Source: Enterobacteria phage mEp237. From it: a DNA stretch of 44,375 bases. How positions within the stretch are numbered: the first letter of the stretch is position 1; each line of letters begins with the position of its first letter. Positions 22,464 through 24,959 of this stretch are shown one piece after another. The DNA lies in sequence record NC_019704.1; one strand, written 5' to 3'. The notes beneath the pieces were generated by a model. It ran no database searches. It saw nothing but the letters and a program-made list of their open reading frames with translations, and was not told where the DNA came from. The translations under genes and the position numbers were made by a program.

Positions 22464-22654
22464 ATTGCAGGATTTTACCGTTGGGTAATTTCATCCATCC
22501 ATCACCACTGGCAAAAAAAGCCATATCCGGTATCTGATTTTCCCCTGTTCCCACATCCCGTTTTGCCGCTTCTCCCAAACCAACCTTTCAAATATTTTTC
22601 TGAATCAGGTGATATTTCGCCTCTTCTCCTGTTTTTACAACAGGAGAAGCACTC

Positions 22655-23203
22655 ATGATTTACGGTTATGCCCGAGTATCAACAAACCACCAGGACACTG
22701 AATTGCAACTAACGGCGCTCAAGTCAGCTGGTTGTGAGAAAATTTTTGAAGAGCATGCCAGCGGGAGGAAATCGAATCGGCCGGTTCTAAAACGGCTGAT
22801 CGCCACTATGCAGCCGGGGGATGAACTGGTGGTCTGGAAGCTGGACAGGATAGGCCGCAACGTTCTGCATGCGCTGTTGATGTTCCAGCAGTTACAGGAA
22901 AAGGGTATCAACTTCCGCAGTATTACCGATGGCGTGGATCTCAAAACAGCCAGCGGCCGCTATAACTTTCGTAACATCCTTTCCGCAGCACAATATGAAT
23001 CTGATCTTAATAGCGAACGTACCTTAGCAGGGCTGGCCGTAGCCAGGGCAAAAGGGCGAGTTGGTGGTCGCAGGCCTAAGTTCACGGATGAGCAATGGCG
23101 GGAAATGGGGGAGCGGATGGCAACCGGTGAATCACGACAAAGCGTATCAAAAACGTATGGAGTAGGGCTCTCAACTCTGTATAAAAAGTTTCCAGCTAGC
23201 TGA
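22655..23203 (+). CDS. Serine recombinase, DNA invertase (Hin/Gin/Pin family)
   Basis: 182 aa; N-terminal YARVSTNHQ catalytic Ser motif, VVWKLDRIGRN, C-terminal HTH (GLSTLYKK); GGAG RBS. Confidence 0.92.
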   Translation: MIYGYARVSTNHQDTELQLTALKSAGCEKIFEEHASGRKSNRPVLKRLIATMQPGDELVVWKLDRIGRNVLHALLMFQQLQEKGINFRSITDGVDLKTASGRYNFRNILSAAQYESDLNSERTLAGLAVARAKGRVGGRRPKFTDEQWREMGERMATGESRQSVSKTYGVGLSTLYKKFPAS

Positions 23204-23478
23204 TAACGGGAAAGAAACAGAGAAGGGCACAAATATTGTGTACTTTAATGTGCCCTTTAATTTATTGATTGGTGGTTGAATTGTCCGTAACTTTTTGATT
23301 TAAGTGCAAATTTCTAATAAATTAGAACACTTTCTTAAATTGTCATTTGGCATATTACGAACAATTCCGCGTAAAAACGTTCTGTTACGCTAAACCCTTA
23401 TCCAGTAGGCTTTCAAGGATGTAAACCATAACACTCTGCGAACTAGTGTTACATTGCGTGTAGCTTTGAGTGGGCAAC

Positions 23479-23519
23479 TTTGTGTACACTTTTGTGTACC
23501 CAAAAACAAAAATGTGTAC
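23479..23519. repeat. Three direct repeats of TTTGTGTAC / ATGTGTAC just upstream of int (candidate integrase arm sites)
   Basis: TGTGTAC at 23481-23487, 23494-23500 and 23513-23519; a fourth copy at 23237-23243. Confidence 0.5.
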
Positions 23520-23526
23520 CCATTCA

Positions 23527-24720
23527 ATGATCACCGACACAAAGCTCAGGAAGGCGCTCGGCAAGAAAAGAGATGATATCGAGATTATTTCTGATTCGCA
23601 CGGGCTCAACGCCAGAATCAGCCAGGCCGGAAAAATATCATTTTTCTATCGGTATCGCTGGGCCGGTAAAGCGGTAAAACTCAATGTTGGTGATTATCCT
23701 GCAATGAGTATCACCCAGGCAAGAGAGCGTCGCCAACAATTCAGAAACTGGTTAACTGAGGGACTGGATCCGCGAGAGCAGGTGAAGCTGGATAAGCAGA
23801 CCCGACAGGAAGCGATGTCCGTTGCCGAAGCGTTCAATTACTGGATTGAAAGGCACTGTATCGCTAACGGGCTAGTTAAAGTCGATTACTATCGCCAGGT
23901 GTTTGAGAAACATATCGCCGAACCGATGAAGAATGTCAAAGTCGATAACACAGCGAAAATGCACTGGATCAACGTCTTCGATTCTATAGAAAGCAGGGTG
24001 ATGGCTCATTACATGCTTTCGCTGTGCAAACGGGCGTTTAGGTTCTGCGTTAACAGAAGTGTGATCGCCTCAAACCCACTCGAGGGATTACTGCCATCTG
24101 ATGTCGGGCAAAAGCCTAAAAAGAGAACTCGCAGGATGGACGATGACGATCTGCGCAAAATCTATCAGTGGTTGAAAAGCCATATGTCGATAGAGTCCGT
24201 TTTCCTGGTGAAATTTATTATGCTTACCGGATGCCGTACGGCTGAGATTCGACTTAGTGAGAGATCATGGTTTCGATTGGATGATAATGAGTGGGTCGTG
24301 CCTGCGGGCAGTTATAAAACTCGGGTACATATTAGAAGGGGACTCTCAGACGCCGCCGTTAACCTGGTCAGAAATCACCTCAAGAAAATAAACACCAATC
24401 ACCTGGTGACTTCACAACGTAAAATTGATGGCGGGATCAAAGATTCGCCCGTTCATTCACCTGTGGCATCCAATTACGCCCGTTCTATTTGGAATGGAAC
24501 AGGTATGGCAGAGTGGTCGCTTCATGATATGAGGCGGACGATAGCCACAAATCTCTCTGAGTTAGGTTGCCCGCCGCACGTAATTGAAAAGCTGCTCGGG
24601 CATCAGATGGTGGGGGTTATGGCGCATTACAACCTTCATGACTATATCGATGATCAGAAACACTGGCTCCGCGTTTGGCAGAGCCATCTTGAAGAGATCA
24701 TCGGAGAGCCCTTCAGTTAA
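23527..24720 (+). CDS. int: Tyrosine integrase (P4-like phage integrase family)
   Basis: Start MITDTKLRK typical of P4-like integrases; C-terminal catalytic region (HDMRRT..., LLGHQ...HYNLHDY); track start 23470 and ATG 23512 are alternatives. Confidence 0.92.
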
Positions 24721-24959
24721 TTTATCTTCTTTTTATCCTCCCACTCTTTGATTGACTCAGAGCGCCAGCGGTTAGGGTTGCCGGGCCAGTCAGGGGGTGG
24801 GAACGGGCATACGAAGCCCCGAGGCATTGTGTCTGCACTTTGCCATGACCAAAGGGTTTTGCGTGAAATTTTGTAGCGACTGGTCAGGTCTGACGTTACC
24901 AAAATATCATCCATAGCTCTCTCCAGTTGCCCGTTCGGGCCATTCAAAATCTTTTTCAA
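24717..24959 (-). CDS. Excisionase / AlpA-like DNA-binding protein
   Basis: Pattern ...[10 protein letters not shown]...[11 protein letters not shown]... resembles Xis/AlpA; ATGA coupling to the upstream ORF; internal start at 24914 with GGAGAG RBS is an alternative. Confidence 0.6.

Follow-up and report, generated by a model that had tools for sequence, protein, structure and literature searches.

The attachment site of phage mEp237, a phi80-type attP with candidate integrase arm-type sites on both sides of its core

In Enterobacteria phage mEp237 (NC_019704.1), a gap of 323 bp (23204-23526) separates the stop of the DNA invertase gene pin (23203) from the ATG of the integrase gene int (23527). 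What is this gap, and what are the short repeats in it for? A preliminary description of the DNA had pointed to an AT-rich stretch of about 320 bp with repeats of TGTGTAC and had read it as a probable attP arm. The stretch is indeed AT-rich, with a GC content of 35.6% compared to 51.4% for the window, which is the whole stretch of 44,375 nucleotides (44 kb) analyzed here and the source of all position numbers. The reading we favor, and consider highly probable, is that the gap is the full attP of a phi80-type phage, at which Int grips TGTGTAC-type arm sites, acts at a 17-bp core, and likely represses its own gene.

The attachment site and its core

In a GenBank comparison, positions 22600-24800 were 99.3% identical to HK225 (JQ086371) and 99.0% identical to phi80 (JX871397, X04051). 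At the matching positions, these records have the DNA invertase gene, an IHF site, and the attP core, as well as pI (given as a possible int promoter), int itself, and xis in the convergent orientation. Because of this 99% identity and the matching annotation, the gap falls on the known phi80 attP. Judged by its sequence, mEp237 is a lambdoid phage of the phi80/HK225 type. Since the core maps inside the interval, both arms lie there as well, and the gap is the whole attP, consisting of P arm, core, and P' arm. Thus, the assignment to attP in the preliminary description stood, given the 99.0-99.3% identity to an annotated attP and the lysogen junctions inside the gap, while its limitation to a single arm did not. 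The features of the locus are listed in Table 1.

Table 1. Positions of the features in and around the attachment site of mEp237
Feature	Coordinates	Strand	Sequence	Remarks
pin, DNA invertase gene, left neighbor of attP	22655-23203	+		Pfam Resolvase and HTH_7; DNA invertase in HK225 and phi80 annotation
Complete attP region, AT-rich	23204-23526			99% identity to phi80/HK225 attP; GC 35.6%
9-nt inverted repeat	23223-23257	+	AAGGGCACA (23223-23231) / TGTGCCCTT (23249-23257)	Arms 100% complementary, 17 nt apart
P1, candidate arm-type Int site	23237-23243	+	TGTGTAC	87 bp left of core start; homologous copies in the P arm of Kp4864-1, the ML35 prophage, Oslo, and SEN34
P2, degenerate arm-type candidate	23249-23255	+	TGTGCCC	12 bp after P1; same repeat family as P1
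IHF consensus match	23258-23270	-	AATCAATAAATTA	Perfect match to WATCAANNNNTTR
13-nt inverted repeat bracketing the core, left arm	23278-23290	+	GAATTGTCCGTAA	92% complementary to right arm
IHF consensus match	23288-23300	-	AATCAAAAAGTTA	Perfect match to WATCAANNNNTTR; IHF protein_bind feature in phi80 JX871397
attP core, 17-bp identity with attB	23324-23340		AGAACACTTTCTTAAAT	Alignment of attP, MG1655 attB, and ECCRA-119 attL and attR
Strongly conserved P'-arm block, including right arm of the bracketing repeat	23351-23391	+		Nearly invariant at 77-87% Int identity; neighboring DNA varies
Conserved block, candidate int promoter/activator region	23446-23470	+	TGTTACATTGCGTGTAGCTTTGAG	Conserved down to relatives with 61% Int identity
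P'1, arm-type candidate	23481-23487	+	TGTGTAC	Overlaps TACACT 23485-23490, the annotated pI -10
P'2, arm-type candidate	23493-23499	+	TGTGTAC	12 bp after P'1
P'3, arm-type candidate	23513-23519	+	TGTGTAC	20 bp after P'2, start to start; ends 8 bp before the int ATG
int, tyrosine integrase with N-terminal arm-binding domain	23527-24720	+		Pfam PF13356 and PF00589; transcribed away from the core
xis, excisionase	24717-24914	-		phi80 and HK225 annotation; no Pfam match; convergent with int

The core had been described as not identifiable without the host attB. It was placed by aligning attP with the empty site of E. coli MG1655 and with both junctions of the lysogen E. coli ECCRA-119. The block common to attP, attB, attL, and attR is exactly the 17 bp of AGAACACTTTCTTAAAT, and the flanks swap as expected. 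This core overlaps the 3' end of yciI, and the E. coli attB lies at kch-yciI; the integration target is the 3' end of yciI, next to kch. The int-side part of the region (23321-23526) adjoins kch in about 176 E. coli genomes, and the pin-side part (up to 23343) adjoins yciI in 119. The preliminary description had allowed that the core might map elsewhere, and the lysogen junctions put the crossover inside the gap. Compared to phi80, with its neighbors pin, int, and convergent xis, its 17-bp core, and its target, there is essentially no difference. The 'attP core' feature of JX871397 (ACACTTTCTTAAATTGT) falls on 23327-23343, 3 bp too far right compared to the true identity block, and the records disagree on the int start.

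The element is already known, being the attP of phi80 and present in GenBank annotation, and it carries little weight as a discovery. It was reportedly first sequenced by Leong et al. in 1985/1986. A map of the phi80 attP has existed for decades, and the site is used routinely, for example in CRIM vectors and in Dual-In/Out strain construction. Arm-type sites are not among the features annotated in the phi80 and HK225 records, and a literature search, which did not reach the 1985/1986 work of Leong et al., found no paper naming phi80 arm-type sites or a minimal phi80 attP. Excision by Int and Xis at ectopic sites works with fragments of phi80 attL and attR in which every repeat discussed below is present, the attL primer ending at 23531 and the attR primer starting near 23004 (PMC2532685). 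With these functional fragments the repeats are sufficient, which does not imply that they are necessary.

Several database matches to the locus were of other kinds. The cloning strains DH5alpha, DH10B, NEB 5-alpha, and 10-beta carry the int-side junction only, which is consistent with a phi80dlacZdeltaM15 remnant, while natural lysogens carry both junctions. The sole match in a plasmid search was one prophage junction filed as a plasmid. A 567-bp contig of Streptococcus danieliae (NZ_JACBXX010000235.1, coverage 1.3) is 100% identical to phi80 int and is almost certainly contamination from phi80 or from an E. coli cloning strain.

The TGTGTAC repeats

The four copies of TGTGTAC noted in the preliminary description are present, all on the + strand. 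The three int-proximal copies had been given as TTTGTGTAC within 41 bp; the span is correct and two copies read that way (23479-87 and 23491-99), but the third is AATGTGTAC (23511-19). Half of the eight TGTGTAC matches of the whole window sit in the gap, with 3.2 expected window-wide, and four copies were reached in none of 20,000 first-order Markov simulations of the 323-bp region. Some 7-mer, mostly a low-complexity word, reaches at least four copies in about 7% of the simulations, so the repeat statistic within the window is only moderate. Together with the degenerate P2, the repeats form a motif that is distinct from the core sequence and lies on both sides of it, two copies to the left and three to the right. 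The start-to-start spacings are 12 bp (P1-P2), 12 bp (P'1-P'2), and 20 bp (P'2-P'3), which is a P4-type layout, and P1 lies 244 bp from P'1.

Comparison with the att sites of related integrases had been proposed as a check, and in it the motif, its 12-bp pairing, and its position recurred down to 34% Int identity. In the relatives with 77-87% Int identity (Kluyvera, Citrobacter, and Klebsiella phage Kp4864-1), all three P' copies are kept, the second often as TGCGTAC, with variable spacers and variable DNA just upstream. At 50-61% Int identity, the upstream DNA of the relatives cannot be aligned with the window, yet TTTGTGTACAC is found with a second copy 12 bp downstream; a third copy is usual, 19-20 bp further, and ends 2-14 bp before the int start. 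An unbiased k-mer count in ten lineages returned TGTGTAC as the most widely shared 7-mer upstream of int, with 13 copies in nine of the ten, compared to shuffled sets in which a 6-mer was common to at most seven lineages. Chance was rejected as the origin of the repeats. An alignment-based locus search returned the close relatives already found and no others, and a search of viral contigs with the Citrobacter-type core pattern gave, among the matches listed, unrelated AT-rich DNA only.

The P arm shows the same pattern. In Kp4864-1 it carries TGTGTAC and TGTGTCC, 12 bp apart, the latter being the equivalent of P2; the TGTGCCC of P2 itself also serves as the P'2 site in one relative (L176). For a distant P arm, we used the complete chromosome of E. 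coli ML35, as the Stx2a_2499 record stops before attR and that of Klebsiella phage ST16-OXA48phi5.1 stops inside a tail gene. The ML35 prophage (52% Int identity) has the core CTATCGTAAGGCAT in the 3' end of sapB, defined from both junctions. Two TGTGTAT copies with a 12-bp spacing lie in its P arm, 95 bp left of the core and separated from it by an IHF consensus, and its P1-to-P'1 distance is 244 bp, exactly the value in the window. In phage Oslo (34% Int identity), two copies of TGTGTACCA are followed at a distance of 231 bp by another TGTGTACCA and by TGCGTACCA, which precede the int ATG. SEN34, also with 34% Int identity, has an Oslo-like layout with the motif T(G/A)AGTACA. Thus, the layout recurs from 77% to 34% Int identity despite unrelated cores and arm DNA. 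The N-domain of Int is always better conserved than the rest of the protein (70% vs 47% for ML35, 46% vs 31% for Oslo), and the motif changes as this domain diverges.

The repeats are very probably arm-type sites for Int. Points against this model include the degeneracy of P2 and the distance of about 150 bp between the P' sites and the core, across which no IHF consensus was found. Another possible explanation is that the int-proximal repeats are transcriptional elements of int only, serving either in the promoter or as an operator bound by a regulator other than Int (for example Xis, CII, or a repressor-type dimer), with no role in recombination. The sites stand directly before the int start in every lineage, P'1 overlaps the annotated -10 of pI, and this TACACT follows the motif in seven of the ten lineages. 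In addition, GTGTACAC in P'1 is an 8-bp palindrome, a common trait of dimeric operators; because of it the orientation of the arm sites is ambiguous, and the sequence alone would also allow a dimeric regulator. However, the 12-bp motif pair is also found across the core, 230-250 bp away and beside unrelated genes, in phi80, Kp4864-1, ML35, Oslo, and SEN34. The motif varies with the Int N-domain, and a like layout in P4 is annotated as att arm repeats. We consider a purely transcriptional role improbable. Promoter and arm-site functions can also coexist, as at P'1 of KplE1 (PMC2951348), and the repeats may additionally serve as a promoter or operator of int, which is compatible with the arm-site role.

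The repeats might instead be bound by the excisionase (Xis/RDF) rather than by Int, which appears less probable still. Sites of this kind are commonly short tandem direct repeats in att arms, and those of KplE1 overlap the int promoter in attL (PMC2951348). Yet they normally lie in one arm near the core, whereas the TGTGTAC motif occupies the distal ends of both arms. The motif also stays constant while the RDF genes are annotated differently, as the phi80 Xis without a Pfam match and as an HTH regulator in the ML35 prophage. Moreover, relatives have other candidate RDF repeats in the stretch from the core to P'1. Those with about 50% Int identity (L215, positions 400-480; L179, L184, and L187 upstream of int) show three or four TGCTTTA/GCTTTA repeats there, phased at 10-14 bp, and it is plausible that they are excisionase sites; no equivalent of this repeat type was found in the window.

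Returning to Int as the protein at the TGTGTAC sites, the following mechanism is proposed. Int would be a heterobivalent tyrosine recombinase with C-terminal domains that act at the 17-bp core, and its N-terminal PF13356 domain most probably binds P1 and P2 in one arm and P'1, P'2, and P'3 in the other. Bending by IHF at its two candidate sites could fold the P arm back so that arm-bound Int reaches the core. The resulting intasome, of the lambda/P4 type, would recombine with attB to give attL (kch side, P' arm, and int) and attR (pin, P arm, and yciI). Int on the three P' sites probably also represses int.

Inverted repeats, the int start, and its promoter

The inverted repeat GGGCAC...GTGCCC of the preliminary description is present just after the pin stop; P1 lies within its loop and P2 forms its 3' arm. 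It could be the intrinsic terminator of pin, its overlap with the motif being coincidental. The perfect 9-bp stem with its T-rich tail, located right behind the pin stop, would fit this, and the ML35 relative shows a clear terminator hairpin in the corresponding position just before P1. On the other hand, the 17-nt loop fails the terminator scan, and as RNA the element folds much like its shuffles (-14.4 kcal/mol, z = -1.7, with 15 of 200 shuffles folding as well). In Kp4864-1 the left arm is lost and the TGTG(C/T)CC half is conserved. On these grounds (loop, scan, z-score, and unconserved left arm) the hairpin was rejected as a confident terminator, and a terminator role here is possible but doubtful. 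The ML35 hairpin (ATGCCCCGTAC TTTT GTACGGGGCAT) is clean and stands in the prophage attR (L216, 640-665) immediately before P1/P2, where the window has its weaker GGGCAC/GTGCCC dyad.

Perfect matches to the IHF consensus WATCAANNNNTTR number only three in the window, and two of them fall between P1/P2 and the core. Within the P' arm of about 150 bp there is none, even when one mismatch is allowed. A second inverted repeat brackets the core, its right arm TTACGAACAATTC lying at 23355-23367 within the conserved P'-arm block. Our guess is that this block, or the bracketing repeat, is a site for Xis, or for Fis or another host bending protein.

Public records place the int start at GTG 23470 (HK225, X04051), ATG 23512 (phi80 JX871397), or ATG 23527 (PGAP). 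The last is most likely, since it is the PGAP choice, the Pfam arm domain begins at residue 2 of this form, and the upstream starts and the longer frame are lost in relatives. Specifically, GTG 23470 is replaced in relatives, ATG 23512 has become AAG in two of them (L176 and L177), and every Kluyvera, Citrobacter, and Klebsiella relative lacks 1 bp between P'2 and P'3, which disrupts the longer frame. No Shine-Dalgarno sequence was found before ATG 23527. In this form, the arm-binding PF13356 domain covers residues 2-87 (E = 1.4e-18) and the catalytic PF00589 domain covers residues 203-371. These data also bear on the proposal that the int-proximal repeats are kept as coding sequence for an N-terminal extension of Int, either a 416-aa protein from GTG 23470 or one from ATG 23512. 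The reading frame is open from 23470, longer Int forms exist in database records, and some homologues have 'FVYT...' extensions. However, the broken frame and the lost starts in relatives speak against such an extension, as does the arm domain starting at residue 2, and the P-arm copies of the motif are non-coding. This proposal was rejected and is hardly credible.

A scan of 22600-24000 called no + strand sigma-70 promoter and no terminator. The pI of the GenBank records has its -35 at 23458-23463 and a 21-bp spacer to its -10, TACACT. Upstream of the P' sites, 23430-23470 holds a conserved dyad, AACACT(N9)AGTGTT, followed by the conserved block TGTTACATTGCGTGTAGCTTTGAG with TTGC-N6-CTTT (23454-67). 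The dyad and the block may be an activator-dependent int promoter, which would be CII-like in the manner of lambda pI. A lambda-CII-like TTGC-N6-TTGC box was not found here, only TTGC-N6-CTTT, whose spacing to TACACT is unlike that in lambda pRE or pI. The 3' ends of int and xis overlap by 4 bp (24717-24720), and because the two genes are convergent a shared promoter is impossible, unlike in lambda. In a lysogen, the int promoter must lie in attL, upstream of the P' sites and the ATG, and for this reason Int on the P' sites would probably repress int. As no canonical sigma-70 promoter was found and the spacer of the GenBank pI is 21 bp, the case for autorepression rests on analogy with P4 and KplE1.

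Comparison with known attachment sites

The closest parallel in layout is phage P4 (NC_001609), which also has a PF13356 integrase and an int transcribed away from the core. Its RefSeq record lists 12-mers as 'attP arm sequence repeat', two adjacent ones on each side of the core and a fifth over the int ATG, which matches the layout in the window. The copy at the P4 int ATG reads ATGTGCCCCCAA on the int strand, and P'3 of the window reads ATGTGTACCCAT. The differences are in sequence and detail. The TGTGTAC motif does not follow the P4 consensus TTGGGGGCAYA, and only TGTGCCC resembles the reverse complement of the P4 repeat. Relative to int, the four main repeats of P4 are oriented oppositely to those in the window. 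The P4 core has 20 bp and lies in a tRNA gene, compared to 17 bp in the 3' end of yciI, the P1-to-P'1 distance is 209 bp in P4 versus 244 bp, and the two Int proteins are 23% identical. The element in the window would work like the P4 attP but does not belong, by its sequence, to the P4 family of sites.

The lambda attP has the general arrangement proposed here for the window: its Int is heterobivalent, P1 and P2 lie in the int-distal arm and three tandem P' sites in the int-proximal one, arm and core have IHF sites between them, and the RDF is Xis. In lambda, int is read toward att under the control of pI, pL, and sib, unlike int in the window. The N-domain family and the arm consensus of lambda also differ, its core has 15 bp, and its P' sites lie 55-85 bp from the core compared to about 150 bp in the window.

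Precedents for control of int from the arm sites come from two systems. Self-repression by Int has been reported for P4 (PMC2951348). In the attL-intS region of KplE1/HK620, the int promoter lies inside attL, the P' arm sites overlap this promoter, P'1 sits on its -10, and both Int (IntS) and the RDF have been demonstrated experimentally to repress int (PMC2951348). The window would resemble this system in the predicted placement of the int promoter in attL and of P'1 on a -10, which here is that of the annotated pI, and similar repression would be expected by analogy. KplE1/HK620 differs in that its arm motif contains TAAA and its target is the tRNA gene argW.

The recurrence of the layout could reflect a rule that holds generally for PF13356 (P4-family) integrases and has been little exploited, a proposal we make tentatively and hold at somewhat less than even chances. 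Under this rule, a 12-bp pair of arm sites would lie distally, followed by the core and by a second 12-bp pair plus a third site that comes 19-23 bp later and ends immediately ahead of the int start. The P1-to-P'1 distance would be about 210-250 bp, and the motif, centered on GTAC, would drift with the N-domain from TGTGTAC to TGAGTAC to TGTGCCCCC. If the rule is true, attP limits and arm sites would be predictable from sequence for many uncharacterized prophages and islands with PF13356 integrases, and the P' triplet would double as a universal int operator.

More immediately, the analysis provides as a by-product a base-exact anatomy of the site, with the core, five candidate arm sites, and two candidate IHF sites, as well as corrected GenBank core coordinates and an int start corrected to 23527. 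The conserved P4-like arm layout could aid the att annotation of related integrases and the design of minimal phi80 att substrates. Under the longer int annotations, the arm repeats are read as 'FVYT...' peptides, which also happens in deposited homologues and in P4.
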